From NCBI GenBank assembly GCA_963744405.1, contig CAVUTO010000020.1:24666-88665 (forward strand): a stretch of 64,000 nt of DNA. The letters are read 5' to 3'. Every line of letters starts with the position of its first letter. The stretch's first letter is position 1. The DNA comes from Vicinamibacterales bacterium (GTDB lineage Bacteria > Acidobacteriota > Vicinamibacteria > Vicinamibacterales > JAMQPK01). A program made the translations under genes and the position numbers. Shown here in pieces: positions 32,473-52,579 of this stretch. The notes under the pieces were generated by a model that saw only the letters and a program-made list of their open reading frames with translations, did not search any database and was not told the origin of the DNA.

Positions 32473-32493
32473 TGTCCGCCTTCAGGCGGACCG
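32470..32493 (+). repeat. REP-like hairpin GTAGTGTCCGCCTTCAGGCGGAC
   Basis: Stem GTCCGCC / GGCGGAC with loop TTCA, 15 nt upstream of ATG 32508. One of four copies in this window. Confidence 0.8.
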
Positions 32494-32507
32494 TACGAGG
32501 ACAACTT

Positions 32508-33770: not shown

Positions 33771-35099
33771 ATGGGTGACGCGCGCGGGACCACGGTTGAC
33801 GAGACAGAGATCGGCAGCTATTTCGTCGCTAACTATCCGCCGTTTTCCGTCTGGACTGCCGATGCCGTCGAGCGCGACGCGCTGCCGGCGTTGAGCTCGA
33901 CGCCGGCGCCTGTGCCGCTCGGGCTGTACCTGCACGTCCCGTTCTGCCGGAAGCGCTGCCATTTCTGCTACTTCCGCGTCTACACCGACAAGAACGCCCA
34001 GGAAGTCGAAGAATATCTCGACGTGATGGCGCGCGAGTGGGAGATCTACAACACCTATCCTGCGATCAATGGGCGCCCGCTCAACTTCGTATACTTCGGC
34101 GGCGGCACTCCCTCGTTCCTGTCGGTGCGCCAGTTGAGCGGCCTGGTGCAACGGTTGACCGCCGTCACTCCATGGTCGTCGGCTGAAGAGATCACGTTCG
34201 AGTGCGAGCCCGGCACGCTGACCGAACCGAAGCTTGCCGCCATTCGCGAGATGGGGGTGACGCGTCTCAGCCTCGGCGTCGAGAACTTCGACGATCACAT
34301 TCTCGAGGTGAACGGGCGGGCCCACCGGTCTCCGGAAATTCTCCGCGCGTATCAGTTTGCGCAGTCGCTCGGTTTTCCGCAGATCAACATCGATTTGATT
34401 GCCGGCATGCTCGGCGAAAGCGAGGAGAACTGGCAGCGGTGCGTGGAGAAAACCATCGAGCTCGCGCCCGACAGCGTCACCGTGTATCAGATGGAACTGC
34501 CGTTCAATACGACGATCAGCAGCGATGTGTTGAAGGGCACCGGCCGCTTCCAGGAGCACGTCGCGAGCTGGTCGACCAAGCGACGCTGGGTTGATGAGGC
34601 ATTCGAGGCGCTGCAGAAGGCCGGCTACACAATCGGCAGCGCGTACACCGCAGTGAAGGATCCCGAGCGCACGAAGTTCATCTATCGCGATCGCCTGTGG
34701 CAGGGCGCCGATTTGGCGGGGCTTGGCGTCGCGTCGTTCGGGCACATCAATGGCGTGCACATGCAGAATCTCGATCAATGGGACACATATAGCGGCAGGA
34801 TTCGCGAGGGCGCACTGCCGCTGAGCCGCGCGTACCGGCCCGACCAGGAAGAGCGGCTCATCCGCGAGCTCGTCTTGCAGCTGAAACTCGGCCGCGTCCG
34901 TCCGTCCTACTTCGCCGGAAAGTACGGCGTCGACATCCTGCAGCGGTTCGAAGGGCCGTTGCGCTCGCTCGATGCAGACGGCTTCCTTGCCGAAGCCGGC
35001 CCCGACAGCGTCACTCTCAGTCGCGCCGGACTCCTGCGCGTCGACTCATTCCTTCCACGGTTCTTTCAGCCGAAACATGCGGGCATCCGGTACACGTAA
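33771..35099 (+). CDS. HemN-like radical SAM protein (coproporphyrinogen III oxidase family / class C)
   Basis: CRKRCHFCYF (CxxxCxxC), YFGGGTPS, and a HemN_C-like C-terminal region. Confidence 0.88.
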   Translation: MGDARGTTVDETEIGSYFVANYPPFSVWTADAVERDALPALSSTPAPVPLGLYLHVPFCRKRCHFCYFRVYTDKNAQEVEEYLDVMAREWEIYNTYPAINGRPLNFVYFGGGTPSFLSVRQLSGLVQRLTAVTPWSSAEEITFECEPGTLTEPKLAAIREMGVTRLSLGVENFDDHILEVNGRAHRSPEILRAYQFAQSLGFPQINIDLIAGMLGESEENWQRCVEKTIELAPDSVTVYQMELPFNTTISSDVLKGTGRFQEHVASWSTKRRWVDEAFEALQKAGYTIGSAYTAVKDPERTKFIYRDRLWQGADLAGLGVASFGHINGVHMQNLDQWDTYSGRIREGALPLSRAYRPDQEERLIRELVLQLKLGRVRPSYFAGKYGVDILQRFEGPLRSLDADGFLAEAGPDSVTLSRAGLLRVDSFLPRFFQPKHAGIRYT

Positions 35100-35646
35100 G
35101 CGAACCGCGCGCATCAGCCACAACGGGATCCTGTTTCCGCTCGACTTCGTATACGCGAGGTCGGGTGTCGAACTTCCGCAGGTGAACGCGATCGATCCCG
35201 ACGACATTCCGCTGCCGTACCGATCGCTGCTCGTGCACAAGACCGACATGACGCTGACGCTCGAGCGTCATTTCGGCGGCCGTGTCGCGCTGCGTCCGCT
35301 CGCGACATTTCTTCACGGCCCATGGTATTTCCGTCGCGTTCTCCTCGCCCAGGAATACACCGGGCGCCCCGTCGAGATGGGCGCGATCCGCATCAGAATC
35401 GCTGCATTTCCCGCGCGCATCCAGAAGCAGATTCTGAAAAACGACGTGCCGCTCGGACGGCTCCTTCGCGACGGCGGCGTCGACTACGAAAGCCGGCCGA
35501 CTGTGTTTTTGTCGGTAACTCCGAATCCGGAGATGATGGGCGTGTTCTGGATGCGCGAGCCGAAGACGCTCTACGGCCGCCGGACCGAGATGATCCGCGA
35601 CGGCGCCAAAATCGGCGATATCGTGGAAGTGCTGCCGCTCGTATGA
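35077..35646 (+). CDS. Chorismate pyruvate-lyase-like protein (UbiC/DUF98 fold)
   Basis: TDMTLTLERHFGG, WYFRRVLL, VPLGRLLR and LYGRRTEMIRDGAKIGDIVEVLP align by eye with the E. coli UbiC segments MTKRFEQQG, YWLREILL, TPLGRYLF and [23 protein letters not shown]. Confidence 0.7.
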   Translation: MRASGTRKRTARISHNGILFPLDFVYARSGVELPQVNAIDPDDIPLPYRSLLVHKTDMTLTLERHFGGRVALRPLATFLHGPWYFRRVLLAQEYTGRPVEMGAIRIRIAAFPARIQKQILKNDVPLGRLLRDGGVDYESRPTVFLSVTPNPEMMGVFWMREPKTLYGRRTEMIRDGAKIGDIVEVLPLV

Positions 35647-35669: not shown

Positions 35670-36082
35670 ATGCCTTCTGAATACCGGCTGAAGCGCCGCG
35701 TGCAGTTCTACGAAACCGATATGGCCGGCATCGTGCACTTCAGCTGGTTCTTTCGCTATCTCGAAGAGGCCGAGCACGCGATGTGGCGCGAGGCCGGCGT
35801 CAGCATCGCCGACGGATCGGGCATCGGGTGGCCGCGCGTCGAAGCGTCGTTCGAGTTTCACCGGCCGTTAAGTTCGAAGACGAGTTCGAGGTGCACCTGC
35901 GTATCGTCGGCAAGGACGCGCGGACGATTCGCTATGAAGGCATCGTCTCGAAGGGCGACACCCGGATTGCGACGGGGAAGATCGCAGTCAAGTGCGTCAG
36001 CAAGAAGCCGGGGGAGCCGATGAAGTCGATCGACATTCCGCCTGAAATCGACGCCCTTTTCCAGGTGGCGCCTGGAGTCTGA
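35670..36082 (+). CDS. 4HBT-type acyl-CoA thioesterase (hotdog fold), frameshifted near 35863-35872
   Basis: VQFYETDMAGIVHFSWFFRYLEEAEH (YbgC/4HBT motif). After ..EASFEFHRP the homology continues in the frame of ORF 35783..36082 (KFEDEFEVHLRIVGKDARTIRYEG). Confidence 0.8.
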
Positions 36083-36083
36083 C

Positions 36084-37195
36084 ATGTCGAACGGGCAGCT
36101 CGCGCTGCAGTTCCTGATTCAGCTCGCGATTATCCTGATGGCGTGCCGGGCCGTCGGCGGCACTGATGCCTGCGCATCGGGCAGCCAAAGGTGATCGGCG
36201 AGATGATCGCCGGTATTCTGCTCGGCCCGTCGCTGCTCGGCCTGCTTCGCGCCGTCCGTGCAGGCGGCACTGTTTCCGCCCGCGTCGCTGCGGCCTGCTG
36301 TCGGTCGTGAGCCAGATCGGACTCGTGCTCTACATGTTCGTCGTCGGCATGCATCTGCACACGAGCTTCATCAAGCAGGCGTTCCGCGGTGCGCATGCTG
36401 ATTTCGCTCGCCGGAGTCGTCTGCGCCGTTCCTGCTCGGCGCAGCGCTGGCGTCAGTTTCTGTACGCAGACGGACCGTTTCTTCACGGCGAACGTCTCGA
36501 GCTGGCAAAGCATGATGTATCTCGGGCGCCGCGATGTCGGTGACGGCGTTTCCCGTGCTCGCGCGCATCATCCAGGAACGAGGCATCGGCGGCACGGCGC
36601 TGGGCACGCTGGCGCTGGCGGCGGGAGCCGTCGATGACATCATCGCGTGGACTCTGCTGGGCATCGTGCTTGCCAGCGTCGATCGCGACGTTTGAGATTG
36701 TCGCGATTCGTCGCGTCGCACGCGGTGTTCGTGGCATTCGTCGCTGGCGCGCTGATGCCGCGCGGGCAGGCTGACGGAGACACTCAGCCGAAGGATCGAG
36801 CCGGTCGCGTCGCACGTGCTGGTGCCTTTCTTCTTCGCCTACTCCGGCTTGTCGACGCAGTTGACGCTGCTGTGGTCGGCCGAACTGGTGTGGCTCTTGT
36901 TCGTGGTGATTTTGATCGCGTCGGTTGGAAAGGCGGTGGGATGTGGGGCGCAGCCCGGCTGGCCGGCAGGTCCAACCACGAAGCGATGGCGCTTGGCGCG
37001 CTCATGAACGCGCGCGGGCTGATGGAGCTCGTCATCCTGAACATCGGGCTGCAGCGCGGTCTGATCACGCCCACGCTTTTCACTGTGATGGTCACCATGA
37101 CGCTCGTGACGACGATGGCTGCGGGGCCACTGTTCGAACGGGTGTGGCGAGGATCGGCGGAGGTGCCGAATGGCGCAGGCGTCCCGGTCCGCTGA
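36084..37195 (+). pseudogene. Cation:proton antiporter (CPA2/Kef-type membrane domain), heavily frameshifted
   Basis: Recognisable fragments are scattered over all three frames:
- MSNGQLALQFLIQLAIILMACRAVG
- IGQPKVIGEMIAGILLGPSLLG
- LLSVVSQIGLVLYMFVVGMHLHTSFIKQ
- MSVTAFPVLARIIQERGIGGTALGTLALAAGAVDDIIAWTLLGIVLA
- HAVFVAFVAGALMP
- VLVPFFFAYSGLSTQ
- ALGALMNARGLMELVILNIGL. Confidence 0.75.
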
Positions 37196-38450
37196 GCGGC
37201 TGTCGGCGCTGATAGATCGCATCTACGGACGGAATCCGTTCTATACGCGAAAGCTCGACGCGGCTGGACTTGATCCGGCCTCGCTGAGGTTTCCGCGTGA
37301 TCTGTCCAAGCTGCCGGTGACGACGAAAAGCGAGCTGGTTGCCGATCAGCAATCCTCGCCGCCGTGGGGCACGAATCTCACAGAGCCGCTCGACCGATAC
37401 ACCCGGTATAACCAGACATCGTCCACGACGGGAAGCCCGCTTCGCTGGCTCGACACGAACGAAAGTTGGCAGTGGATGCTCGAGTGCTGGAAAGCCGTCT
37501 ATGAGGGCGCGAAGGTCGATTCGCGCGATCGCATCTTCTTTCCGTTTTCCTTCGGGCCGTTCCTCGGATTCTGGACGGCGTTCGAAGCGGGCTGCCAAAT
37601 CGGGGCCCTCTGCATTCCTGCCGGCGGCATGTCGAGCCAGGCGCGTCTCGCGATGATCGAGACATTGCGGCCGACGATCGTCTGCTGCACGCCGACATAC
37701 GCCCTTCGATTGCTCGAGGTCTCTGGTGAAGAGCGCGACGGCAAGCCCGATCTCTCCAAGAGCTCTGTGCGCATGCTGATCGTGGCAGGGGAGGCGGGTG
37801 GAAGTATTCCGTCGACGCGCGAACGGATCGAAAAAGGCTGGGGAGCGCGGGTGATCGACCATCACGGGCTCACCGAAGTTGGTCCGATCAGCTTCGAATG
37901 CTGGGAGGCTCCTGGCGCACTTCATCTGAACGAGGCTGAATACATCTGTGAGATTCTCGAGACCGACTCGGATCGACCGGTCGCGGACGGCGAACGGGGC
38001 GAGCTCGTGGTGACGAACCTCGGCCGGGCACCCAGTCCGCTGATTCGCTATCGCACCGGCGACATCGTCGTCCGGCGATCCGGCTCGTGCGCGTGCGGGA
38101 GCGGTTTTGCCCGTCTCGAAGGCGGCATCCTCTCGCGCGCCGACGACATGGTGAACGTGCGCGGCGTCAACGTCTATCCGTCTGCCGTTGAAGCGGTTGT
38201 GCGCCGGTTTCCCGAAGTGGGAGAGGACCGCGCCACTGTGACGGCAAATGGCGCGCTGCGGGAGCTGTCGATCGAGATAGAGATGGGTGGCGCTGATAGC
38301 GGAGCGGACGCCGCCGCGCGCATCGCGGCCGCGCTTCGCGAATCTCTCGGCCTGACGGTGCCTCTGCGTGTCGTCGATGCCGGCTCGCTTCCGCGCTTTG
38401 AAATGAAGGCCCGGCGGTTTGTAATTGCAGACCAGGGTCAGTCACCGTAG
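37170..38450 (+). CDS. Phenylacetate-CoA ligase family protein (PaaK / F390-synthetase-like aryl-acid ligase)
   Basis: 426-aa intact ORF with FYTRKLDAAG, QTSSTTGSPLRW (AMP motif), YRTGD and VNVRGVNVYP. Confidence 0.88.
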   Translation: MAQASRSAERLSALIDRIYGRNPFYTRKLDAAGLDPASLRFPRDLSKLPVTTKSELVADQQSSPPWGTNLTEPLDRYTRYNQTSSTTGSPLRWLDTNESWQWMLECWKAVYEGAKVDSRDRIFFPFSFGPFLGFWTAFEAGCQIGALCIPAGGMSSQARLAMIETLRPTIVCCTPTYALRLLEVSGEERDGKPDLSKSSVRMLIVAGEAGGSIPSTRERIEKGWGARVIDHHGLTEVGPISFECWEAPGALHLNEAEYICEILETDSDRPVADGERGELVVTNLGRAPSPLIRYRTGDIVVRRSGSCACGSGFARLEGGILSRADDMVNVRGVNVYPSAVEAVVRRFPEVGEDRATVTANGALRELSIEIEMGGADSGADAAARIAAALRESLGLTVPLRVVDAGSLPRFEMKARRFVIADQGQSP

Positions 38451-38515: not shown

Positions 38516-38836
38516 TTGGCTGGAGTGACACCGGAGATGCTGATCGAGCAGATGCGCAGCGGGCGTGCGCCGTTGATTCTCGACGTGCGCTCGAAGCGCG
38601 AGTTTGACGATGGCCACGTGCCCGGCGCCGTTCACGTTCCGTTTTGGCAGGTCGGCCGGCATTGGCGGAAATTTGTGTCGGCCCGCGAGCTGCCCGTTGT
38701 GGTGTACTGCGGTCATGGGCCGCGTGCCTACATGGCTGGCGCGTCGCTGAAGCGCAGAGGATTCACGAACGTGGTCTATCTGTCCGGACACATGAAAAGG
38801 TGGAAGGACATGAATCTTCCGCTCGAGGGGAAATAA
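38516..38836 (+). CDS. Rhodanese-like domain protein
   Basis: LILDVRSKREFDDGHVPGAVHVP and the active-site loop YCGHGPRA. Its stop overlaps the next ATG (TAATG). Confidence 0.85.
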   Translation: MAGVTPEMLIEQMRSGRAPLILDVRSKREFDDGHVPGAVHVPFWQVGRHWRKFVSARELPVVVYCGHGPRAYMAGASLKRRGFTNVVYLSGHMKRWKDMNLPLEGK

Positions 38837-40107
38837 TGGCGTCCATTTTCCGTGCTATCGCCGGCGTCACTGCGGTCCTGGGCCTGGCCTCCGCCTTCAC
38901 GCTTGCGCAGCAGGTCGAGGTGCGCATGGTGACCGTGGAAGGAGAGGGCACGAAGTACTGGCCCGTGTGGCGCGGTCCTTCGGGGCAGGGGCTCGTCACC
39001 GGGACGTATCCCGACAGTTGGTCTGCAACCGAAAACGTCGCGTGGAAGAAACCCGTAGCAGGCCGCGGCAACTCTTCCCCCATCGTCTGGGCCGACAGAA
39101 TTTTTCTGACGACCGCCCACGACGGCGGTCGCCGCGTGTCGTTGATTGCGTTCCGGCGGTCCGATGGCACGCAGTTATGGGAGACGTTCGCGCCCGACGG
39201 CAGAACAGGCCGCGCGCACTACAAGAACGGGCACGCCTCTGCGACGGCCTTGACCGACGGCACGCTCGTTTATGCGTCCTTCGGCAGCCGGGGGTTGGCG
39301 GCTTTCGACTTCAACGGCAAGCTCGTCTGGCACAAGGACCTGGGCGACGTCGACAACTATCACGGCGCGGCGGGGTCGCCGCTGCTTTACAAGAATCGCG
39401 TGATTCTCTATCAGGATTTTGACGGAGGCTCGTTTGTCGCCGCTTTCGACTCGCGCACCGGTAAGGAGCTGTGGCGCACTCCGCGGCGTGCGTCGGTCGG
39501 ATGGGGCACGCCGGTGGCGGTGCGCGTCGGCACGCGCGACGAGATCATCGTCAGCAGCCAGAGCGCCGTCACGGCATACGATCCCGACAGCGGCCGCGAG
39601 CTCTGGGTCTGCGATGGCAATTCTTTCGAAGTGATTCCGACTCCCGTCGTCGGCCACGGCCTCGTGTTCGCGTCATCGGGCCGCGTTGGGCCGACGTTGG
39701 CGATTCGGCCGGGAGGCCGCGGGAACGTGACGCGCACGCATCTCGCCTGGACGAGTCCGAAGGGGTCGCCGTTTGTGCCTTCGCCTATCGTCGTCGGCGA
39801 TCAGCTCTACATGGTGAACGACATGGCGAGCGTCGTCACCTCGTTCGACGCGGCTACGGGAAAAGTACTATGGCAGGGAAGACTGGGCGTGGCTCAGCGC
39901 GAAGGGTTTTCGGCATCGCCTGTCGCCGTTGACGGGAAAGTCTTCTTCACGAACGATCAAGGAGAGACGTTCGTGGTCAAGGCCGGCCCCACGTTCGAAC
40001 TGCTGCGCACCAATAGAATCGGCGAAACGACGCTGGCCTCGCCGGCGCTCGTCGACGGCCGCTGGTACATCAGGACGGATCGAAGCCTATTCGCCATCGG
40101 GAAATAG
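38836..40107 (+). CDS. PQQ-like beta-propeller repeat protein P3
   Basis: ATG 38836, signal peptide MASIFRAIAGVTAVLGLASAFTLAQQ, YWPVWRGPSGQG, ENVAWKKPVAGRGNSSPIVWADRIFL. Confidence 0.9.
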   Translation: MASIFRAIAGVTAVLGLASAFTLAQQVEVRMVTVEGEGTKYWPVWRGPSGQGLVTGTYPDSWSATENVAWKKPVAGRGNSSPIVWADRIFLTTAHDGGRRVSLIAFRRSDGTQLWETFAPDGRTGRAHYKNGHASATALTDGTLVYASFGSRGLAAFDFNGKLVWHKDLGDVDNYHGAAGSPLLYKNRVILYQDFDGGSFVAAFDSRTGKELWRTPRRASVGWGTPVAVRVGTRDEIIVSSQSAVTAYDPDSGRELWVCDGNSFEVIPTPVVGHGLVFASSGRVGPTLAIRPGGRGNVTRTHLAWTSPKGSPFVPSPIVVGDQLYMVNDMASVVTSFDAATGKVLWQGRLGVAQREGFSASPVAVDGKVFFTNDQGETFVVKAGPTFELLRTNRIGETTLASPALVDGRWYIRTDRSLFAIGK

Positions 40108-40167: not shown

Positions 40168-41490
40168 TTATTTTCCGATCGCGATTACCGCGTCGTCGGT
40201 GCGGATGAAAATTCGTCCACCAGACACGGCCGGCGAGGCAAGTTGTCGGGCGTTCAGCCGGTTCCGCGCGAGAACACGAGGGTTCTGTCCCGCGGAGAGC
40301 ACGATTGTCTGGCCATCCTCGCTCAACAGATAGATTTTGCCGTCGGCTGCAACAGGCGACGCGGTGAAAACGCCACCCGTTCGTTCCTGCCATACGCGCT
40401 GTCCGGTGCGTGCATCGATAGCACTCAGGACACCCACGTCGCCCGCCATGTAGAGCAGTCCGTTGTAGTGGACGAGCGACGAGACGTATGGCGCGCCCGT
40501 GTCGACGCGCCACGTGACGTGGCTCTTGCTGACGTCGCCCTTGCCCCCCGGCCGAATGGCCATGTACGGTCCGCTGCGGTATCCGCGGCTCGTGTAGATC
40601 GTGCCCTCGTGGAAGACAGGCATCGGTATCGGAAAGCGATTTTGCTCCTGAATGTGCCACAAGAGCTCGCCGGTTGCTGCATTGTGCCCGCTGACGCCTT
40701 CGCTCGAGTTCACGATCAGCTCGTGGGTACCGCCGGACTGGACAACCAGCGGTGTGCTGTAGGAGTTGAAGCTGCCGCCGCGATCGACGCGCCACTTCGT
40801 CTTGCCTGACGCCGTATCGAGGTTCAGCAGGTACGAATCGGTATCGTGATAGCAGATCAGAATCAGCGAATCGTTGAAGATCGCAGGCGAGCTGCTGTGG
40901 CCCCAGTTGATGTTGAACGGCGCGTATTCCAGGCCCAGATGCCGCGACCAGACGAGCTTGCCGGACATGTCGAGCGAGACGATCTGGCCCGTGCCGAACC
41001 ACGCGTAGACGCGCCGGCCGTCGGTAACCGGACTCGACGAGGCGAGATTGTGCTTGTCGTGCACCTCGGCGAGTTGTCCCTCTGCCGGCAGTTCGTACTC
41101 CCACACCTTGCGGCCATCGACGCGGTTCAACGCCGTGACGAGAAACACGACTTTGCCAGTGGCAGCTGCGGGGCCGCCACCGAGCGCGCGTTCTCCGGCC
41201 TCAGATGGATTACCGCCCTGCACGAGCGTCGGATGGTTGCCGGCTCGCCGAGCGCTGCGCCCGATCTGCGATGTCACGAACACGTGATCGCCCCACACGA
41301 TAGGCGACGAAATGCCGAGTCCGCGAACCGATGCTTTCCAGGCGACGTTCTCCGTGTCGCTCCAGCGCTCGGGCAAACCGGTTTCAGTGGAGACGCCCGT
41401 CGACGCCGGGCCTCTCCAATGCGGCCAATTGTCGGCGCGCACTTGCGCGAACGGCAGCACACACATCACGGCGAGAGCGAAGAGTCTCAT
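40168..41490 (-). CDS. PQQ-like beta-propeller repeat protein P4
   Basis: 440-aa ORF with signal peptide MRLFALAVMCVLPFAQVRA, NWPHWRGPASTG, ENVAWKASVRGLGISSPIVWGDHVFV. Confidence 0.9.
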   Translation of the reverse strand: MRLFALAVMCVLPFAQVRADNWPHWRGPASTGVSTETGLPERWSDTENVAWKASVRGLGISSPIVWGDHVFVTSQIGRSARRAGNHPTLVQGGNPSEAGERALGGGPAAATGKVVFLVTALNRVDGRKVWEYELPAEGQLAEVHDKHNLASSSPVTDGRRVYAWFGTGQIVSLDMSGKLVWSRHLGLEYAPFNINWGHSSSPAIFNDSLILICYHDTDSYLLNLDTASGKTKWRVDRGGSFNSYSTPLVVQSGGTHELIVNSSEGVSGHNAATGELLWHIQEQNRFPIPMPVFHEGTIYTSRGYRSGPYMAIRPGGKGDVSKSHVTWRVDTGAPYVSSLVHYNGLLYMAGDVGVLSAIDARTGQRVWQERTGGVFTASPVAADGKIYLLSEDGQTIVLSAGQNPRVLARNRLNARQLASPAVSGGRIFIRTDDAVIAIGK

Positions 41491-41619
41491 GGTGTCCTCG
41501 CCGCCATTATCGCGTGTTTGGTTGCCGTCGCGACACGTTCGAGCGCTTCACGAGTCCTTCATCTTCGCCGCGGCCCTCGTCTGGTAAACTCGCTGTCTTA
41601 ACCGAGAGTATTCCTATTC

Positions 41620-42936
41620 ATGCGCACCGTTCATGGCATCGCTGCTGCTCTCGTCGCTGTTCCCCTCGCGCTCGCGCCACTGGCGCAGGCGCCGACGGCA
41701 GATCGCTATTGGCCGCAGTGGCGGGGACCGCTCGCCAACGGGATTTCCCGGACCGCGAATCCCCCAACCGAATGGGGTGAAAGCAAGAACGTCAGGTGGA
41801 AGGTCGAGATTCCTGGACGGGGTTCGGCTTCTCCGGTGATTTGGGGAGATCGTGTGTTCGTGCTCACCGCGATTCCCGCCGCCGCGAGCGTGACGGACTC
41901 TCACGCCCCGCGGGGAGGCGTGAACCCCAGGAGCGTGCATCGGTATGTGGTGATGGCGCTCGACCGCCGGGACGGCCGTGTCGTGTGGCAGCAGACCGCG
42001 CGCGAAGAAGCCCCTCACGAGGCCTCGCACCAGGACAACGGCACGTGGGCTTCGGCGTCGGCGATGACAGACGGCCAGCACGTAATCGCGTCGTTCGAGT
42101 CGCGCGGCATTTACGCGTACGACATGAACGGCAAGCTGGTCTGGCAGAAAGATCTCGGCGACAAGTCAATGCGCAACGAGTTCGGCGAAGGCAGCACGCC
42201 GGTGCTCTACCGCAACCGCCTCGTTGTCGTGTGGGATCACACGAAAGGGTCCTACATCACAGCGCTGGACAAGAACACTGGCAACGAGCTCTGGCGTGTC
42301 ACGCGCGACGAAATCGACACGTGGGCGACTCCCTACGTCGTCGAGCACGATGGCCGTGCTCAAGTGATCGTGCCCGGCATGAACAAGCTGCACAGCTACG
42401 ATCTCGAGACCGGCGCCGTTGTGTGGCACAGCCAGGGATTGACGATGAACCCTATCCCCTCGCCGGTGGGCGAAGACGGTATCGTCATCGCGACGAGCGG
42501 GTTTCGGGGCAACAATCTCAAGGCCATCCGCATCGCCGACGCGAAAGGTGATCTCACAGGTTCGAAGGCGATTGTGTGGTCGCTCGATCGCGACACGCCG
42601 TACGTGCCGTCGCCCGTTCTCTACGACGGGTTCTTGTATCTCCTGAAGAGCAACTCGCCGATCGTGTCGGTGTTCGACGCGAAAACGGGCAAGCCGCACT
42701 ATCAACTTCAGCGGCTCGACGGATTGTCTGAGGTGTTCTCGTCGCCAGTGGGGGCCGCCGGACGCGTCTATATCACCGGCCGCGACGGCACGACGGTCGT
42801 GCTTCGAAACGGCGGGTCGTTCGACGTGCTCGCGAAGAACGTGCTGGACGACGGGTTCGACGCCTCGCCGGCGCTCGTCGACAGCGAGATGTACATGCGC
42901 GGCTATCGCTATCTCTACAGTCTCGGGGCCAAGTGA
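41620..42936 (+). CDS. PQQ-like beta-propeller repeat protein P5
   Basis: 438-aa ORF with a signal peptide, YWPQWRGPLANG, KNVRWKVEIPGRGSASPVIWGDRVFV. Confidence 0.9.
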   Translation: MRTVHGIAAALVAVPLALAPLAQAPTADRYWPQWRGPLANGISRTANPPTEWGESKNVRWKVEIPGRGSASPVIWGDRVFVLTAIPAAASVTDSHAPRGGVNPRSVHRYVVMALDRRDGRVVWQQTAREEAPHEASHQDNGTWASASAMTDGQHVIASFESRGIYAYDMNGKLVWQKDLGDKSMRNEFGEGSTPVLYRNRLVVVWDHTKGSYITALDKNTGNELWRVTRDEIDTWATPYVVEHDGRAQVIVPGMNKLHSYDLETGAVVWHSQGLTMNPIPSPVGEDGIVIATSGFRGNNLKAIRIADAKGDLTGSKAIVWSLDRDTPYVPSPVLYDGFLYLLKSNSPIVSVFDAKTGKPHYQLQRLDGLSEVFSSPVGAAGRVYITGRDGTTVVLRNGGSFDVLAKNVLDDGFDASPALVDSEMYMRGYRYLYSLGAK

Positions 42937-44240
42937 ATCCAGACGTCATCGTCATAGGCGGGGGGCCCGCCGGGTCAACCACATCCACCCTCATTGCTCA
43001 GCGGGGCTATCGTGTGCAGCTCTTCGAGCGCGATCGATTCCCGCGCTTTCATATCGGCGAGTCGCTGATTCCCGAAACCTACTGGGTGCTGCAGCGGCTG
43101 AGCATGCTTCCGAAGATGCGAGCCAGCCCGTTCGTGAAGAAATACAGCGTTCAGTTCGTCAATTCACGCGGCAGGGAGTCGGCGCCGTTCTACTTCTGGG
43201 ACAACAAGCCGCACGAGTGCTCGCAGACCTGGCAGGTCGTCCGCAGCGAATTCGACAAGATGATGCTCGAGAACGCGCGAGAGCATGGCGTCGATGCGCA
43301 AGAGAGCGTTCGCGTCCTGGAAGTGCTGTTCGACGGCGATCGTGCCGCCGGAGTGAAGATTCGCGACCATCAGAACAACGATCGCGACGTGTTCGCAAAG
43401 GTCGTCGTCGATGCGAGCGGCCAGACGGCTATGCTGCAGAATCGGTTCAAGCTGCGGCTCTGGGACCCGGTCCTGAACAAAGGCGCGATCTGGACCTACT
43501 GGGAGAACGCTTACCGCGACACGGGCCGCGACGAAGGCGCCACGCTGGTGATTCAGACCGGCGACAACCAAGGCTGGTTCTGGTACATCCCGCAGCACGA
43601 CAATGTCGTGAGCGTCGGCGTGGTCGCGCCGTTCGAGCATCTGTTCAACAAGGGCCGCGAGAGCCACGAAAAAACCTACGAGGATGAGGTCGAGAAGGCG
43701 CCTGGCGTGAAGCAGCGCCTCGCGAATGCGAAGCGCGTGACCGGCTACTTCGTGACGAAGGACTACTCGTATCGCGCGAAGCAGGTTGCCGGCAACGGCT
43801 GGGTGCTCGTCGGCGATGCGTTCGGGTTTCTCGATCCCCTGTACTCGTCCGGAGTGCTGCTCGCGTTGAAATCGGGCCAGCTCGCCGCCGACGCGATCGT
43901 CGTTGGGTTGGAAAAAGGGGACACGTCCGCCGCGCAGCTGGGTGCGTGGGGCGAGAATTTCAACCGCGGCGTGGATCGCATGCGGCGGCTGGTTTGCGAG
44001 TACTACGCGGGCTTCAGTTTCGGCGATTTTGTCAAAAATTACCCCGAGCTTCGGGGCACGGTCACCGACCTCTTGATCGGCGATCTCTTCGACGATCGCG
44101 TCGACAAAGTGTGGGCGCCGATGGAATCGCTGTACAAGCCGGGGAAATCGCGCATTCAGGATTGGACAGAGGGGACGGCGTCTGACGAAGCGGCAAACAA
44201 GGCGAACGAGCTGATCTTGCCCGAGGGGCGGAGGCGGTGA
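42933..44240 (+). CDS. FAD-dependent oxidoreductase with flavin-dependent-halogenase-like motifs
   Basis: GTG 42933 overlaps the P5 stop (GTGA). Motifs [11 protein letters not shown] (GxGxxG), [25 protein letters not shown] (WxWxIP) and [14 protein letters not shown]. No signal peptide. Confidence 0.8.
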
Positions 44241-45496
44241 TGCGAGTACTCGGTGTTGCGTTCTGCATACTGCTCAGTTGCGTAGGGACGGCTCGCGCGG
44301 AGAACTGGCCGCAATGGCGAGGTCCGTCGTTAAACGGCATCAGCCCAGAGACGAACCTGCCTGTGAAGTGGACGACGACGGAGAACATCGCGTGGAAGCT
44401 GCCGATGCCGGAGTTGTCGGGATCGACACCAATCGTCTGGGGCGACCGCATCTTTCTGAATGTCGCAGAGAAAGGTAGCCTGTTCCTGTGGGCGGTCGAT
44501 CGCAACAAGGGCGAGCCGATTTGGAAGCGCCATCTGAGCGACGGCGACAACCGGCAGCGTAAGCAGAACATGTCGACGCCGTCGCCTGTGACCGACGGCA
44601 CGAATGTGTGGGTGATGACCGGCACCGGCATCCTCAAGGCCTTCGACTTCAACGGCAAAGAGTTGTGGATGCGCGATATCCAGAAAGAGTACGGGCGCTT
44701 TGGCCTGAACTGGGGCTACGGATCGTCGCCGCTGATGCACGGCGATTCGCTGTTCGTGCAGGTGCTGCACGGCATGAAGACGGACGATCCGTCCTACATC
44801 CTGCGCATCAGCAAGGCGAACGGGCGCACCATATGGCGCCAGGAACGGCCGACGATCGCGCAGCGCGAGTCGCCTGACTCGTACACGACGCCTGCCATCG
44901 TGCGGCACGGTAACAACCTCGAGCTGGTCATCACCGGCGGCGATGCGGTGACGGGGCACGACGTCAACACAGGCCAAGAGCTGTGGCGCGCGGATGTGCT
45001 GAATCCCACCAACGATCTCGCGTACCGGATCGTCGCGTCGCCGGTCGTGCACGGCGAGCTCATCATCGCGCCAACGCGCGAACGGCCGATGGTGGTGATG
45101 CGGCCGGGCGGTCGCGGCGACGTCGCCAAAACGCACATCCTGTGGGAATTCCAAAACGGCCCTGATGTGCCGACGCCGGTCACCGATGGCACGTACCTCT
45201 ATGTCGTGAACGATCGCGGCATCATGTGGTGCCTCGACCCAAAAACGGGCAAGGAAATCTACGGAAAGCAGCGCCTGCGCCCGAGCACCTACAGCGGCTC
45301 GTTCACGCTGGCCGACGGCAAGCTCTACATCACGAACGAAGACGGGCTGACGACGGTGCTTCGCGCGGGTCCGAAGTTCGAGATTCTCGCGGAGAACGAC
45401 TTTGCTGATTATTCGCTGAGCACGCCTGCGGTGTCGGAAGGACAGATCTTCATTCGCACCACGGGCGCGCTGTGGGCGATTGGACAACGCAAATGA
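44240..45496 (+). CDS. PQQ-like beta-propeller repeat protein P6
   Basis: ATG 44240 overlaps the stop of the FAD enzyme (TGATG), with GGAGG upstream. [38 protein letters not shown]. Confidence 0.9.
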
Positions 45497-45535
45497 GAAT
45501 TGGAAGATTGGTAGATTTAGATTGCCAGATTAGAA
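45497..45535. repeat. Simple repeat (TTGGAAGATTGG type)
   Basis: GAATTGGAAGATTGGTAGATTTAGATTGCCAGATTAGAA fills the spacer. Duplicated and expanded at 48542-48597. Confidence 0.8.
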
Positions 45536-46084
45536 ATGCACGACAGCGCGCTGGTCGCGTTTTATCGAGGCGACGGACGCGATCATCGAGGCCGCTCGCT
45601 GAGCGATATCCACGAGTTCGACTTCTACGAGCTCGAATTTCATCACGACTACATCCAGTGGCTCTTCCCACTTCCTGAGCCGAGCGGCGCGAACGAGTCG
45701 GCGCCGTTGCTGTCAGAGCGCGACATCGCCGCATTTGCGTCAGACGACTCGCTCAGGAAAGCGCTGTTGCAATCATTGGAGCTCATGCTGCAGTTCTATT
45801 GCCTCGAGCCCGCAGTCCGCGGCGAGTCTGTCGAAGTCGTGCGCGGCCCCAACTACGACGAGCGGAGCGCTCTCTGGCTGACGGCCGGAAATCATAACTT
45901 CCTGCGCATCAGCAGGATGCTGCGCTCGCTGACGCTCCTGGGCTGTTCGGGCTACGCTGCGGCCTTGCTCGAGTGTCTCGAGGATATCTACGCTGAGAAC
46001 GCGCAGGCAATCGGCAATACGCCCATCGGGTACTGGCGCCGCGCCATAATGGGCCAGTCGTATGCCCCTCGCCGCTGGAACTAG
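45536..46084 (+). CDS. Opioid-growth-factor-receptor (OGFr) N-terminal-domain-like protein, copy 1
   Basis: HHDYIQWLFPLPEPSGAN and NHNFLRISRMLRSL match my recollection of the bacterial OGFr_N-like family. Confidence 0.75.
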   Translation: MHDSALVAFYRGDGRDHRGRSLSDIHEFDFYELEFHHDYIQWLFPLPEPSGANESAPLLSERDIAAFASDDSLRKALLQSLELMLQFYCLEPAVRGESVEVVRGPNYDERSALWLTAGNHNFLRISRMLRSLTLLGCSGYAAALLECLEDIYAENAQAIGNTPIGYWRRAIMGQSYAPRRWN

Positions 46085-48462
46085 ACTTGGCCCCTACGAG
46101 ATTCTCCTGCCGCTGGGAGCGGGTGGCATGGGCGAGGTCTACAAGGCCCGTGACACCAGGCTCGACCGCCTCGTCGCCATCAAAATCCTCCCGTCAGCAG
46201 ACCCTGAGTTGAGGCAGCGCTTCGAGCACGAGGCCAAGGCTGTGGCGGCGCTCTCGCATCCGAACATCTGCCTGCTGCACGATGTCGGCCACCAGCACGG
46301 CATTGATTTCCTTGTCATCGAGTACCTGGAAGGTGAGACGCTCGCCGACCGTTTGAAGGAAGGGCCTCTTGCCCATCATGTGATGTGCGATCTCGCTGTT
46401 CAAATTGCAGATGCGCTTGACACGGCGCACGCCGCTCACGTCGTCCACCGGGATCTCAAGCCCCACAACGTGATCATTACGAAGCGCGGTCAGGCCAAAG
46501 TGCTTGATTTCGGTCTTGCGAAAATCGGCGCGGCCGTGGGGCCGGGTGGATCGTCAGACAGCTCAGACGCGCCCACGAGGTTCGCCGCGACGCAGCTGAC
46601 GAGCCCGGGGAGCACCCTGGGAACTGTGGCGTACATGTCACCCGAGCAGGCGCGCGGCGAGCAGACGGATGTCCGGACCGACATCTTTTCGTTCGGCGCC
46701 ATGCTGTATGAGATGGCAACCGGCCGGCCGGCGTTTCCCGGCCGAACGCCCGCCATCGTTTTCGACGAAATTCTGAACAAGGCGCCCGTGTCGTCCGCGG
46801 TCGTGAACCCGGAGGTGGCCCCGGATGTGGATCGGGTCATCGCGAAGGCGCTCGAGAAGAATCGCGACGCGCGCTATCAGACCGCCGCCGATCTGCGTCG
46901 CGATCTCGAGCGTGCCCGGGATTCGAGGCGGCAACCGCGCGAGAACGACGGGCCACAGGCGTCCCGGGGTGTGACACGGCGACGGTCGATCCGCCTTGCG
47001 GCCCTGACCGCGGCTGCCGTTCTGCTTGTCGTCGTGCTGATCGCCAACCGCGAGCGCTTTCTGTCGAGCGCTGCCGTCGATTCGATCGACTCAATCGCCG
47101 TGCTGCCGTTCGTCAATGCCAGCGGTACTCCGGATGCGGACTATCTCAGCGACGGCATCTCGGGAACGCTGACGAATAACCTCGCGCGCGTGGGCGGTCT
47201 CCGGGTGATCCCGCGGACGCTCTCTGCGCGCTACAGGAACGGCGCGACAGATCCAGCTCAGGCGGGCAGGGAGCTGAACGCGCGGGCCGTCGTCACCGGC
47301 CGCGTGGTCCAGCGCGGCGACCAGCTCATCATTCAGGCCGAGCTGATCGATGTGGCAAGCGTCTCACAACTGTGGGGAGACCAATTCGAGCGTCCGCTCG
47401 CTGATGTCGTGAGTGTTCAGGCGGAGATCTCCAGGGCTATTGCAGACAATCTCCGACTGCGCCTTACGCCCGACGATCGACAGAACCTTACGGCCGGTGC
47501 CCCGCGCGATGCGATGGCGTATCAACTGTATCTTCGCGGTCAGTACGCGACGAACAAGCGGACGCGTGAGAGCTATCAGCAGGCAACCCAGTACTTCAAC
47601 CAGGCGTTGGCACGCGACCCTTCGTATGCGCTCGCCTATGCCGGACTTGCAGACGCCTACATCTGGCAAGGGTACTGGGGCTACCTGAACTCGGCTGACG
47701 CCTATCAGAAGGCGGTCGTGGCGGCGAGACAAGCCACCACGCTCGACGACCGATCGGCTGACGGGCACGCAGCGCTCGCGTGGATCAGTCTGTACCTATC
47801 AGTGGGATTGGGCACAGAGCGAGCGCGAGTATCAGCGGGCGATCGCGCTTGACCCGACCAACGCGGTGATTCGACGGATGTACGGCGAGTCGCTGGGCAC
47901 CCGCGGCCGCTTCGACGAGGCGATCGCGGAGATCCGCCGCGCGGTCGCGCTGGATCCGCTGTCGGGGCCCAGCGCAGTCGGACTCGGTTTCATGCTCAGC
48001 AACGCAGGTCACTTCGAGGAGTCAATTGCGGTTTTGAAACGCGCCATCGCGCTCGAGCCGGACCACACCCTCGCAAAGCTCGATCTTGCGCGCACGTACC
48101 GCCTCGCTGGGATGACCGACCTCGCCATTGCCGAAAGCCAGCGGATGGTTGACGCGGGCGATCCACTCGGTCCCGTGTTCCTCGCGGCCAGTTACGCGGT
48201 GGCCGGCCGCAAAGCGCAGGCGCGTCACCTCCTCGAATCCATAGTTGCGACAGCGCGATCAACTCAGAAGGGCAGCTTTGCGGTGGCGCTGGTTCTTGCC
48301 AGTCTCGGCGAGCGCGATCAAGCCTTCGAATGGCTCGAGCGAGCCTATCAGGAACACGACACGTTTCTCCCATGGCTTAGGGTTGATCCGGATCTTGCGT
48401 CGTTGCGTCACGATCCTCGTTTCGAGGAACTCGTTCGCCGGATTGGAATTCCGGAACGATAA
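46062..48462 (+). CDS. Ser/Thr protein kinase with TM segment, periplasmic domain and TPR tail; frameshift near 47795-47796
   Basis: GAGGMGEVYKA, HRDLKPHNV, DFGLAK, SPEQ. TM LAALTAAAVLLVVVLIA. After ..AWISLY the reading YQWDWAQSEREYQRAIALDPTNAVIRRMYGE continues in the frame of ORF 47866..48462 (TPR repeats). Confidence 0.85.
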
Positions 48463-48466
48463 CGCT

Positions 48467-48541
48467 TTGCCGGCAGTTTCAGAGGGGCAGATTTTCATCC
48501 GCACGACCGGGGCGCTGTGGGCGATTGGACAACGCAAATGA
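48467..48541 (+). pseudogene. 3-prime remnant (24 codons plus stop) of a PQQ-propeller paralogue
   Basis: Encodes [24 protein letters not shown] stop. Its last 23 residues equal the C-terminus of P6 (45425-45496). There is no upstream propeller body; it starts 5 nt after the kinase stop. Confidence 0.75.
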
Positions 48542-48597
48542 GAATTGGAAGTTTGAAGATTGGTAGATTGGAAGATTGGTAGATTGCCAGATTAGAA
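48542..48597. repeat. Simple repeat (TTGGAAGATTGG type), expanded copy
   Basis: GAATTGGAAGTTTGAAGATTGGTAGATTGGAAGATTGGTAGATTGCCAGATTAGAA. Confidence 0.8.
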
Positions 48598-49128
48598 ATG
48601 CACGACAGCGCGCTGGTGGCGTTTTATCGAGGTGATGGGCGCGACCATCGCGGCCGCTTATTGAGCCACATCCTCGGGTTCGGTCCCGACGAGCTCGAAC
48701 GTCATCACGACTACATCCAGTGGCTGTTCCCTTTGCCTGAACCAAGCGGCGCGAATCCATCGGCGCCGCTATTGTCGAAGGACGATATCGGCGCGTTCAA
48801 GTCCGATGAATCACTTCGAGAGGCCCTTATCGAGTCGCTCCAATTGATGCTGCAGTTTTATGGCTTCCACCTCGTCACCCGCGGTGCTCACGTCGAGATA
48901 ATGCGTGGCGCCAACTTCGACGAACGGAGCCGTGTCTGGCTCAGTCACGGCAACCATAATTTCCTGCGCATCAGCAGAATGCTGCGCTCAATGTCGCTAT
49001 TGGGCTCGAGCGAGCATGCCCAGGCGCTTCTAAAACGGCTCGAGCAGGTTTACGCCGGGCATATTCCAATCATAGGCACGACCACGATGGGTTTCTGGCG
49101 CAGGGCAGTGACGGAGGCGAACGAATGA
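48598..49128 (+). CDS. OGFr N-terminal-domain-like protein, copy 2
   Basis: Paralogue of 45536..46084 with the same N-terminus (MHDSALVAFYRGDGRDHRGR) and the same HHDYIQWLFPLPEPSGAN and NHNFLRISRMLRS motifs. Confidence 0.78.
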   Translation: MHDSALVAFYRGDGRDHRGRLLSHILGFGPDELERHHDYIQWLFPLPEPSGANPSAPLLSKDDIGAFKSDESLREALIESLQLMLQFYGFHLVTRGAHVEIMRGANFDERSRVWLSHGNHNFLRISRMLRSMSLLGSSEHAQALLKRLEQVYAGHIPIIGTTTMGFWRRAVTEANE

Positions 49129-50485: not shown

Positions 50486-50935
50486 TTACGCGGTCGGTCT
50501 GAAATACAGCACCATCCCGGCGCCGAGCGACGCGAGCACGAATCCCACGTACAACATCGGGTTCGGCGCGACCTTCGGCGGGTGGATTACCATCGAGAGC
50601 AGCACGTTGACGATGGGGGCGCCGCCGAAGACGAGCGGCATGACGTACACGGGGAGGCCGCCGCTGCGAAACGCCCAGATGATGCAGCCCGCTCCGATGG
50701 CGCCGAGCGCGCCGGCGATCGTCGCCACCATCAAGCCGGTCTGATTGAAGCCGGACAGACCGCCCTGCGACGCGAGCGTGGCGACCGGAATCAGCACACC
50801 GATCAGGAAGTACGCGACGCCCACGCACAACAACGCCTTGAGCGGGTTGCCGAGCATCACCTGGCCGCGATGGAGCAGTACGCCATACGCCCCCCAAGAC
50901 AGTACGGCGCCGAGCACGAAGACAAGCCATCTCAT
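50486..50935 (-). CDS. Hypothetical integral membrane protein
   Basis: 149-aa ORF with 4-5 hydrophobic helices. Confidence 0.7.
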   Translation of the reverse strand: MRWLVFVLGAVLSWGAYGVLLHRGQVMLGNPLKALLCVGVAYFLIGVLIPVATLASQGGLSGFNQTGLMVATIAGALGAIGAGCIIWAFRSGGLPVYVMPLVFGGAPIVNVLLSMVIHPPKVAPNPMLYVGFVLASLGAGMVLYFRPTA

Positions 50936-51055: not shown

Positions 51056-52579
51056 CTATTTTGGAAGCGCGATCGCGAACAGCTGATTGCGGTTGTTGAG
51101 GAAGATCGTGCCGTGCGCCGGCGTCACGGTCGCGTACACCGAGCTGCCCATGTTCATTTCGGCCAGCACCTTCTTCTCGCGGCCGTGGGCGAGAACCGTG
51201 ACGTCGCCGTCTTCGTCGCCGATGTACACCTTGCCGTCAGCCACGAACGGCGATCCCCAGACAGCTGCGAACAGATCGTGCACCCAGATCTCCTTGCCGG
51301 TCGCGGCGTCGAGACAATACAGAAAGCCGCTGAAGTCTGAGATGTAGACGAGGCCGTCGGTGACGGCTGCGGTGGAGATCGAACGCCGGATCTTCGTGAA
51401 GTGCCATAACCGGCCGCTCTGCGTGATGTCACCACGCTTGGTCGCGTCGATGGCGTAGAAGTTGCCGACGCCCTCCCCGTGTTCGGGATCCTGACCGTTG
51501 GCGAGGTAGACGCGGTCGCCGACGATGACCGGCGTCGAGATCAATTCGTTGCGGGTTTTCGGCCAGACCGTCTCTTTGGGGTTCGTGTCGAACTCCCAGA
51601 GCTTCTTGCCGGTCTGCGCCTCGTAGCCGCGTGCCCATCCGTCCCCCTGCGCGGACACGACCTGCACGACCCCGCCGATCGTGCCGACCGCCGGCGGCGA
51701 CCACTGGCCGTGCAGAATGCGGTCTTCGACCGAGTTGTCCTCCCACACGAGCTTGCCTGTCGTTTTGTTCACCGCGATGATCGACGGCGCGCGCGGAGAG
51801 GGGATGTTCACATGGCTCTCGTCCTGCCCGTTCGATGTGCTGACGAAAACCAGATCGCCCCACAGCACTGGCGACGAGTTGGCCAGGTTGTGCGGATAGG
51901 TGCCCACTTCCTCCATCATGTCGAACGCCCAGATGACGTCTGCGTCGTTCATGCCGGTGAGTTTTTCGTCGGTCACCGGGCCGTCGTTTTCTTTGTCGCG
52001 AAAGCCTTCGATGTCGACGGCGAACAGCACGGCGCGATTGCTCACGTAATAGAGCGTCTTGCCGTCGACGAGCGGGGAAGAAGCCACGCCCTGATAGGGC
52101 CAGTCGTTGGCGCGCCCCGCCTCGAGCTTCGTGTGCGTGTGCTGCCACAGGAATTCGCCGTCGGTCTCGCGAAAGGCCATCAGCACGCCGCGGTCGCCGG
52201 GCTGCTTCGCATCGCGCACGCCTTCGTTGTTCGTGCCGACAAACACCGTCCCGCCCGCGACGACGGCATTCCCATAGCTCTGCGACCCGAGGTCCGCGAC
52301 CCACTTGATGTTCTTCTTCGTCTTCACGTCCCAGTCGGTCGGCAGGCCCTTCGCATTCGACACCATGTTGCGATCGGGGCTGCCGCCCCACATCGGCCAG
52401 TCGCCTGTGCCGGGATCGGACGCCGAAAGACCGGTGGCTGCCACGGTTACGACCAACGCAAGGGCAACATTGACGCAGAGGCGCGAAGGCGCAAAGAAGG
52501 CCTTGTTCTCAAGAAACGAATTACTTTGCGGCTCTGCGGCTCCGCGTCGAGGTTTGGGCGCTGTTGTCATGTCATTCAT
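51056..52579 (-). CDS. PQQ-like beta-propeller repeat protein P7
   Basis: 507-aa ORF with TM/signal VNVALALVVTVAATGLSA, DWPMWGGSPDRN and propeller blades. Overlaps the upstream P8 gene by 8 nt. Confidence 0.88.
   Translation of the reverse strand: MNDMTTAPKPRRGAAEPQSNSFLENKAFFAPSRLCVNVALALVVTVAATGLSASDPGTGDWPMWGGSPDRNMVSNAKGLPTDWDVKTKKNIKWVADLGSQSYGNAVVAGGTVFVGTNNEGVRDAKQPGDRGVLMAFRETDGEFLWQHTHTKLEAGRANDWPYQGVASSPLVDGKTLYYVSNRAVLFAVDIEGFRDKENDGPVTDEKLTGMNDADVIWAFDMMEEVGTYPHNLANSSPVLWGDLVFVSTSNGQDESHVNIPSPRAPSIIAVNKTTGKLVWEDNSVEDRILHGQWSPPAVGTIGGVVQVVSAQGDGWARGYEAQTGKKLWEFDTNPKETVWPKTRNELISTPVIVGDRVYLANGQDPEHGEGVGNFYAIDATKRGDITQSGRLWHFTKIRRSISTAAVTDGLVYISDFSGFLYCLDAATGKEIWVHDLFAAVWGSPFVADGKVYIGDEDGDVTVLAHGREKKVLAEMNMGSSVYATVTPAHGTIFLNNRNQLFAIALPK

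Follow-up and report, generated by a model that had tools for sequence, protein, structure and literature searches.

The closest described relatives of the enzyme treated here are the non-tryptophan flavin-dependent halogenases CndH, CmlS, PltA, Mpy16, ChlB4 and Bmp2, and two further systems resemble its genetic setting in part. QhpG, which has a CmlS-like fold, is a monooxygenase that acts on protein tryptophan before export (PMC7876137), and in Planctomycetales strain 10988 the chorismate-lyase-like BaaA and the adjacent halogenase-like BaaB were proposed to form 3,5-dibromo-p-anisic acid in this planctomycete, the Baa locus being without genetic validation (bioRxiv 10.1101/723874). Here we analysed 64,000 nucleotides from a Vicinamibacterales bacterium (contig CAVUTO010000020.1, positions 24,666 to 88,665; this whole stretch is called the window, and all coordinates below refer to it, on its plus strand unless minus is stated), in which a gene for a flavin-dependent halogenase-like FAD (flavin adenine dinucleotide) enzyme (FDH; 42933-44240, 435 aa, GTG start) lies between the genes of two secreted beta-propellers, P5 and P6. 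Judged from its sequence, the middle gene encodes an intact cytoplasmic homologue of the FADH2-type flavin-dependent halogenases of the short type and is a new, uncharacterised member of this known family. Its conserved partners are cytoplasmic small-molecule enzymes and not propellers, and its position between two propellers is best seen as a rearrangement within one lineage, not as a functional triad that has been conserved.

FDH matched Pfam PF04820 (Trp_halogenase, the FADH2-dependent class) with 93.7 bits at a cut-off of 21 (E 1.5e-26). Against all sequences of the Protein Data Bank (PDB) the top matches were 8zop (2e-63), Mpy16 (1.6e-57), ChlB4 (2.3e-56) and CndH (3.4e-56), continued by PltA (1.8e-49), Bmp2 (~1e-46), CmlS (8e-45) and RadH (7e-37), while geranylgeranyl reductases reached ~1e-14 and epoxidases and monooxygenases 1e-7 or weaker. 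These PDB E-values place FDH nearer to proven halogenases than to the other flavoenzymes of group A; a literature search on entry 8ZOP returned nothing relevant. We rejected an assignment as geranylgeranyl reductase on the distance between ~1e-14 and the 1e-45 to 1e-63 of the halogenases, and since the score for the geranylgeranyl reductase subfamily TIGR02032 (128.3 bits) stayed below its cut-off of 158.8. None of the more specific NCBIfam models was reached either: the top model, CmlS (NF033113), scored 208.7 bits against an equivalog cut-off of 900, and QhpG as the second-best match (142.7 of 240 bits), LodB (93.3 of 400) and GoxB (67.8 of 400) followed below theirs. In direct sequence comparison with the QhpG structure 7ctq, similarity was restricted to the GD motif (E 8e-5).

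The active-site residues are in agreement with this placement. The FAD-binding GxGxxG motif is present as GGGPAG (residues 9-14), followed by HIGESLIP (40-47), FVKKYSVQF (67-75), GWFWYIP (214-220) and a further motif of 14 residues at 294-307. HIGESL, which contains E43, aligns with the GES motif of halogenases. In the alignment, K70 of FVKKYSVQF falls opposite chain position 76 of CndH (3e1t) and the KK pair of CmlS, the catalytic lysines of the reference enzymes being K79 in PrnA, K76 in CndH and K71 in CmlS. The WxWxIP signature is formed by W215-F-W217-Y-I219-P220. Across 82 orthologues GGGPAG is invariant, as are K70, E43 and the four signature positions W215, W217, I219 and P220 (82/82 each), while K69 varies. 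The sequence-only reading of this DNA had quoted these motifs and had compared FDH with non-tryptophan halogenases: all motifs are present at the residues located, the catalytic lysine and WxWxIP are kept in every orthologue, and FDH groups with CndH, CmlS, PltA, Mpy16, ChlB4 and Bmp2, so that it neither falls among the geranylgeranyl reductases nor lacks the lysine.

The three reading frames of the unit are intact in the window, and their coordinates and junctions were confirmed as described by the same reading. P5 (41620-42936, 438 aa) combines a Sec signal with a PQQ_2/BamB-like beta-propeller (Pfam PQQ_2, 1.6e-35), and its TGA stop shares 4 nt with the FDH start (caaGTGAatc). P6 (44240-45496, 418 aa counted from ATG) also carries a Sec signal and PQQ_2 (9.6e-28); its ATG shares 1 nt with the FDH TGA (gcgGTGATGcga) and is preceded by a GGAGG Shine-Dalgarno sequence 5 nt upstream. 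Both propellers start with hydrophobic Sec-type N-termini, followed by WPQWRGP, and the FDH N-terminus enters a Rossmann strand straight away. The reading of FDH as a cytoplasmic enzyme that is transcribed together with two propellers exported through Sec is supported. Where genes overlap in bacterial operons, 4 nt and 1 nt are the most frequent lengths; being ordinary in compact operons, such overlaps support co-transcription and nothing more. Scanning 41300-46300 for promoters and terminators gave no signal above shuffled background that bears on operon structure. Export of FDH as a Tat 'hitch-hiker' together with a propeller was rejected, since neither the P5 nor the P6 signal peptide contains a twin-arginine motif.

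We then compared 83 related loci, onto which the window proteins were mapped by tblastn and in which all nearby open reading frames (ORFs) were clustered de novo. The closest FDH homologues come from metagenome-assembled genomes (MAGs) of Vicinamibacterales with up to 93% identity; identities of 69-79% were found in other Vicinamibacterales and in Planctomycetota (among them Gemmataceae, Pirellulales and the cultured Gemmata algarum). The collection searched has no gene that encodes exactly the FDH of the window. Beyond this orthologue group, the next full-length relatives fall to 54%, 50% and 48% identity. In the neighbour-joining tree, a planctomycete clade stands apart from the acidobacterial clade, and within the acidobacterial part the types of gene context are recovered as coherent groups. 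It should be noted that three loci come from MAGs labelled 'Cyanobacteriota' (L022), 'Candidatus Kuenenia stuttgartiensis' (L041) and 'Bifidobacteriaceae' (L075); the contigs of L022 and L075 hold loci of acidobacterial type and L041 the planctomycete type with a MarR regulator before FDH, which suggests mis-binning or mislabelling. The closest relatives are MAGs named MFD...bin.

Of the loci compared, 72 extend 1.5 kb or more to either side of FDH; nine of these have the arrangement propeller-FDH-propeller, and all nine belong to a single Vicinamibacterales clade of the FDH tree with FDH identities of at least 86%. L002, with an FDH of 79% identity, retains the upstream propeller only and L010 the downstream propeller only. 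Overlap or direct abutment of the P5 stop and the FDH start is retained within the triad clade, while the overlap between the FDH stop and the P6 start was observed only in the window, its relatives having spacers of 40-120 nt. The triad is thus no conserved unit but a trait of one clade, the downstream overlap is not shared, and orthologues of 69-79% identity occur in other contexts, as radical SAM-FDH-thioesterase without a propeller or, in Planctomycetota, directly behind MarR. A looser link between FDH and propellers holds: in many Vicinamibacterales, propeller orthologues and an ABC/FtsX transporter are found repeatedly by the FDH operon described below where it contains the ligase. The translational coupling of FDH to two propellers is of modest interest in itself. 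In L004-L012, the spacer between FDH and P6 (~11300-11420 in each locus) consists of short tandem repeats that differ by genome, with units of GAAAAC-, GGGATTA-, AGTCGAA- and GAAAGTA-type, and this spacer is wholly lost in the window.

The sequence-only reading overlooked the conserved neighbours of FDH, which in the window are situated 5-9 kb upstream, with the minus-strand propeller c (40168-41490, PQQ_2 by Pfam, on the strand opposite to P5-FDH-P6) separating the two groups. In Acidobacteriota, a radical SAM gene, the most constant FDH neighbour there, and a 4HBT thioesterase gene each lie beside FDH in ~42 of the 83 loci, a PaaK-like ligase gene in ~24 and a UbiC-like gene of ~190 aa in 11. 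The operon genes are separated by 7-60 nt and follow two main arrangements, radical SAM-(190 aa)-thioesterase-ligase-FDH and radical SAM-FDH-thioesterase. The window holds the same partners. Its HemN/HutW-like radical SAM enzyme of class C type (33771-35099) matches Pfam Radical_SAM, the NCBIfam models HutW, HemN and HemW all staying below cut-off. The 4HBT-type hotdog thioesterase (35670-36082) is intact in relatives; in the window, it is split over two frames by tblastn with a frameshift near 35867, both halves matching Pfam 4HBT_2/4HBT. The PaaK-like aryl-CoA ligase (37170-38450) contains Pfam AMP-binding and AMP-binding_C_2, with PaaK and FlxY as best NCBIfam models, both below cut-off.

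The ORF at 35077-35646 (189 aa) found no match in single-sequence Pfam and PDB searches. Its profile, however, matches PDB 2nwi (E 0.006), and its AlphaFold2 (AF2) model (pLDDT 89.7) retrieves 2nwi with Foldseek (E 2e-7, TM-score 0.66-0.77) and resembles E. coli UbiC with a TM-score of 0.53-0.62. Alignment of the profile with E. coli UbiC by hhalign gave E 4e-4, for a UbiC sequence entered by hand, and homologues are named chorismate-pyruvate lyase in the annotation of the Joint Genome Institute (JGI). Profile similarity and predicted fold, which is that of UbiC/UTRA, thus both identify the protein as a putative UbiC/DUF98-like homologue of chorismate pyruvate-lyase.

Between thioesterase and ligase, the window retains a remnant of a CPA2 Na+/H+ exchanger (36525-37150) in two fragments, which match the L084 protein over residues 194-241 and 382-455 only. 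Intact CPA2 exchangers flank the FDH operon in other Acidobacteriota and adjoin MarR-FDH in some Planctomycetota, an association across phyla. A single-domain rhodanese (38516-38836; Pfam Rhodanese, 2.9e-20) is encoded between the ligase and propeller b; outside the triad clade, it was seen in L084 only. In the planctomycete loci examined, FDH directly follows the MarR regulator, a form that Gemmata algarum and other cultured Gemmata carry as well, and some of these loci also have a CPA2 exchanger in the vicinity. No acidobacterial partner adjoins FDH there and no propellers are nearby, but distant UbiC-like genes lie 1.5-6 kb from FDH in L079 and L083. Our literature searches turned up no case in which a HemN-like radical SAM enzyme works with a hotdog thioesterase, a PaaK-like ligase and a halogenase, nor the operon variant that joins these and a UbiC-like protein with an ABC/propeller module, and a search on Vicinamibacter and halogenase returned nothing relevant.

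The surroundings of this operon are rich in envelope genes. We identified nine propeller genes in the window, and all but one fall into the stretch from 32.4 to 54.8 kb. Besides P5, P6 and propeller c, these include propeller a (32472-33749, PQQ_2), whose start abuts the end of the FtsX gene, propeller b (38836-40107, PQQ_2 by Pfam), with orthologues that other genomes repeatedly have upstream of the operon, and, both on the minus strand and upstream of the gene for the small membrane protein TM149, propeller d (51056-52579, PQQ_2; orthologues of 70-96% identity recur next to the operon) and a PQQ_2 propeller of 638 aa (52909-54825). TM149 itself (50486-50935, minus strand, 149 aa) is a multi-span protein outside any Pfam family and was found near the operon in ~27 loci, usually next to propellers and either in divergent orientation to the radical SAM gene or behind FDH. 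An ABC ATPase (28503-29114, Pfam ABC_tran) precedes a MacB/FtsX-type permease (29120-32472, Pfam FtsX), which carries two frameshifts relative to the L085 permease by tblastn.

The ligase-containing operon is repeatedly accompanied by orthologues of b, d and P6 (66-79% identity) in varying gene order, and P6 orthologues elsewhere (66-71%) usually follow the FtsX permease directly. P5 orthologues (67-71%) were found in the same neighbourhood in all three long contigs sampled from the P5 side (L084-L086). L084 has the order PQQ, radical SAM, UbiC-like, Na/H exchanger, 4HBT, ligase, rhodanese, PQQ, P5, FDH, TonB-receptor-like outer-membrane protein, PQQ. L085 reads aldehyde dehydrogenase (Aldedh), GT4, ABC_tran, MacB/FtsX, PQQ, P5, PQQ, TM149 (minus), radical SAM, 4HBT, ligase, FDH, Na/H exchanger, and L086 repeats this order with a UbiC-like gene added. 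The left border of the window (Aldedh, GT4, ABC_tran, FtsX, propeller a) matches L085 and L086. In 29 acidobacterial loci the flanks were long enough to look for propellers within 10 kb: they are present in 13 of 15 loci with the ligase and in 4 of 14 without it (Fisher p = 0.0025, uncorrected for phylogeny). The loci of the form radical SAM-FDH-thioesterase and all planctomycete loci are free of propellers and have identical FDH active-site residues. Consequently, the link between FDH and propellers is real at the level of the neighbourhood, in a part of the Vicinamibacterales only, and propellers, MacB-type ABC transporter and small membrane protein form what seems to be a recurrent envelope module beside the ligase-containing operon, its recurrence being observed and its unity as a module being our interpretation. 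In L084 (10623-14969) and L002 (14082-17362), a TonB-receptor-like outer-membrane protein of ~1030 aa (CarboxypepD_reg and OMP_b-brl_4) is followed directly by a PQQ_2 propeller gene; propellers are thus coupled to outer-membrane barrels, too, besides FtsX and FDH.

Taking these observations together, we put at about even the chance that FDH halogenates a chorismate-derived aryl acid or its thioester, the coupling to propellers being the outcome of an operon rearrangement. In such a pathway, the UbiC-like lyase would convert chorismate to 4-hydroxybenzoate or a similar aryl acid, and the PaaK-like ligase would activate this acid as CoA thioester, replacing the carrier-protein tether of PltA, Mpy16, Bmp2 and ChlB4. 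FDH would then generate hypohalous acid from FADH2, O2 and halide, steered by K70 onto the aryl ring, the hotdog thioesterase would free the product, and the radical SAM enzyme would introduce an additional modification, perhaps a C-methyl group. In the lineage of the window, a rearrangement would have taken the FDH gene out of its operon and placed it between P5 and P6; the overlapping codons would accordingly reflect operon compaction and are no proof that FDH acts on the propellers. Several points weigh against this proposal. No flavin reductase or carrier protein is found among the neighbours in the window, L001-L003 and L084-L086, and the intergenic gaps in FDH loci are too short to hide an acyl carrier protein. 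The ligase-free form radical SAM-FDH-thioesterase leaves the origin of the thioester unexplained, the UbiC-like gene lies beside FDH in a minority of loci, and the recurrence of orthologous propellers beside the operon leaves room for a direct tie between pathway and propellers. In addition, 212 of the 435 columns in the alignment of 82 FDH orthologues from two phyla reach 95% identity or more, which is unusual for a tailoring enzyme of secondary metabolism and hints at a more central role.

This extreme conservation is one ground for considering FDH a hydroxylase or another flavin oxygenase of a conserved primary pathway, for example one that modifies a quinone or a lipid head group with a MenK-like radical SAM methyltransferase and a thioesterase of the DHNA-CoA (1,4-dihydroxy-2-naphthoyl-CoA) type as partners. 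The HemN-like radical SAM class, to which the partner of FDH belongs, includes menaquinone C-methyltransferases; identities of 69-93% are kept across the two phyla, the gene is present in many species-representative genomes, that of the cultured Gemmata included, and the halogenase fold does not by itself imply halogenation, enzymes such as QhpG being monooxygenases (PMC7876137). Nevertheless, we regard an oxygenase as fairly unlikely: the halogenase-specific lysine and WxWxIP are invariant, the FDH sequence is far nearer to proven halogenases than to any monooxygenase, and the MarR gene immediately before FDH in Planctomycetota suggests that the gene is inducible and has no housekeeping role.

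The remaining explanations concern the propellers. The operon and the propellers could form one system, in which the operon makes a small aromatic compound that is exported by ABC/FtsX or TM149 and serves as ligand, substrate or cofactor of the periplasmic propellers, which resemble PQQ (pyrroloquinoline quinone) enzymes without any match to true PQQ dehydrogenases. In favour of this speak the enrichment of propellers near ligase-containing loci, the recurrence of orthologues of b, d, P6 and P5 by these loci in varying orders, the clustering of eight of the nine propeller genes of the window within 32.4-54.8 kb, and the borders common to the window, L085 and L086 (aldehyde dehydrogenase, GT4, ABC, FtsX, propellers, operon, Na/H exchanger). 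We nonetheless consider it rather doubtful, since FDH orthologues with identical active-site residues occur without nearby propellers, both as radical SAM-FDH-thioesterase and in Planctomycetota, since coupling of propellers to FtsX and a TonB-receptor-like outer-membrane protein suggests promiscuous placement, and since the P5 model matches only generic eight-bladed propellers and nothing in our data points to a ligand or cofactor site on the propellers. The most inclusive form of this idea, in which the MacB-type ABC transporter, PQQ-less propellers, small membrane protein, operon and CPA2 antiporter act as a whole and a halogenated, chorismate-derived aromatic is exported as propeller cofactor or ligand, appears quite improbable to us. 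The opposite view, by which the propellers are an expanded mobile family of paralogues that stand beside FDH by chance, is favoured by the existence of thousands of propeller homologues, by the 20-37% identity to P5 of six aligned paralogues of the window, by varying gene orders and a transposase inside one locus, and by the downstream overlap, which occurs in one genome only. It is improbable in turn, because what accompanies the operon in many genomes is a constant set of propeller orthogroups (66-79% identity) rather than paralogues drawn at random, and all three independently sampled P5 orthologues fall in the operon locus. Finally, FDH might modify the propellers themselves, halogenating or hydroxylating tryptophan or tyrosine before Sec export to yield a protein-derived cofactor, as QhpG, LodB and GoxB do for tryptophylquinone enzymes. 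The rank of QhpG as second-best NCBIfam match, followed by LodB and GoxB, would fit, as would the action of the CmlS-like QhpG on protein tryptophan before export (PMC7876137), the tight P5-FDH junction throughout the triad clade and the WPxW(R/G)G motif that is invariant just after the signal peptide of the propellers. Yet the cut-offs of all three families are missed, the direct match to 7ctq is confined to the GD motif, FDH orthologues of 70-79% identity lack an adjacent propeller, the conserved partners are small-molecule enzymes, and the tryptophan-rich motif is found in all six aligned paralogues, whether adjacent to FDH or not, which makes this explanation hardly credible.

Other features of the window concern its assembly and its flanks. 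A direct duplication (45424-45817 and 48469-48879) comprises the P6 3' end, the spacer and the 5' part of a gene with an OGFr_N domain, with 87 nt at 86% and 300 nt at 75% identity, and because of it the window has two OGFr_N genes (45536-46084 and 48598-49128); between the copies lie the genes of a Ser/Thr kinase (46062-47852) and a TPR protein (47866-48462). The gene of the GT4 glycosyltransferase (27135-28409) is disrupted in the same way as those of the MacB/FtsX permease and the 4HBT thioesterase: compared to intact relatives, each is spread over two or three frames, and these splits are probably long-read indel errors rather than true pseudogenes. The minus-strand ORF at 54839-57793 (984 aa) had no Pfam match.

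Vicinamibacterales are abundant in soil, and hardly any of their secondary or specialised metabolism has been characterised. With its invariant catalytic residues, its occurrence in Planctomycetota as well and a compact operon that probably starts from chorismate, FDH is a testable candidate for organohalogen formation in soil, and radical SAM enzyme, hotdog thioesterase, PaaK-like ligase and halogenase are an unusual combination of enzymes. The value of the locus rests on this conserved operon and on a possible link between pathway and propellers, not on the codon overlaps. The recurrence of a MacB-type transporter and PQQ-like propellers by the operon is a lead rather than a result, which could point to the function of a very large, uncharacterised family of periplasmic propellers.

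In comparison with known systems, P5 and P6 share with BamB and the PQQ-dependent dehydrogenases the eight-bladed PQQ_2-type propeller fold and the Sec signal. The P5 AF2 model (pLDDT 85) is a generic eight-bladed propeller with BamB (TM-score 0.62-0.77) and tetrathionate hydrolase as closest PDB structures; by sequence, P5 had no PDB match at E 0.01 or better. Both proteins remain below the family cut-offs, with 45.6 and 68.3 bits for BamB TIGR03300 at an equivalog cut-off of 285.2 and 29.5 of 480 bits for the NCBIfam PQQ dehydrogenase model. They also differ in having many paralogues per locus, and the P5 signal peptide contains no cysteine and hence no lipobox of a BamB-like lipoprotein. 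With QhpG, LodB and GoxB, FDH shares the halogenase-like fold and the cytoplasmic location, those enzymes serving periplasmic or secreted enzymes, and in the QHNDH operon, too, a radical SAM enzyme is encoded together with an ABC exporter and a propeller subunit. However, FDH scores below these families' cut-offs with marginal direct similarity to QhpG, the radical SAM enzyme here is HemN-like and not of the QhpD type, and no substrate gene resembling QhpC, LodA or GoxA was seen in the FDH locus.

The likeness to the short halogenases CndH (3e1t), CmlS (3i3l), PltA (5dbj), Mpy16 (5buk), ChlB4 (7fco), Bmp2 (5bva) and 8zop is one of sequence (E 2e-63 to 8e-45) and comprises the fold together with GxGxxG, GES, the catalytic lysine, WxWxIP and GDAxxFxDPxxSxG; the alignment with Mpy16 and ChlB4 extends to residue ~400 and includes the C-terminal helical region. 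In contrast to these enzymes, the FDH locus has no carrier protein, NRPS/PKS (nonribosomal peptide or polyketide synthase) gene or flavin reductase, its partners being a HemN-like radical SAM enzyme, a hotdog thioesterase, a PaaK-like ligase and a UbiC-like lyase; FDH misses the equivalog cut-off of CmlS, and conservation within its orthologue group far exceeds that of typical tailoring halogenases. The Baa locus is described without radical SAM enzyme, ligase, thioesterase or propellers, and its likeness is one of description, not of sequence. Nevertheless, a chorismate-lyase-like gene adjoins a halogenase-like gene in both systems, the proposed Baa substrate is 4-hydroxybenzoate, and Planctomycetota also carry the FDH group.

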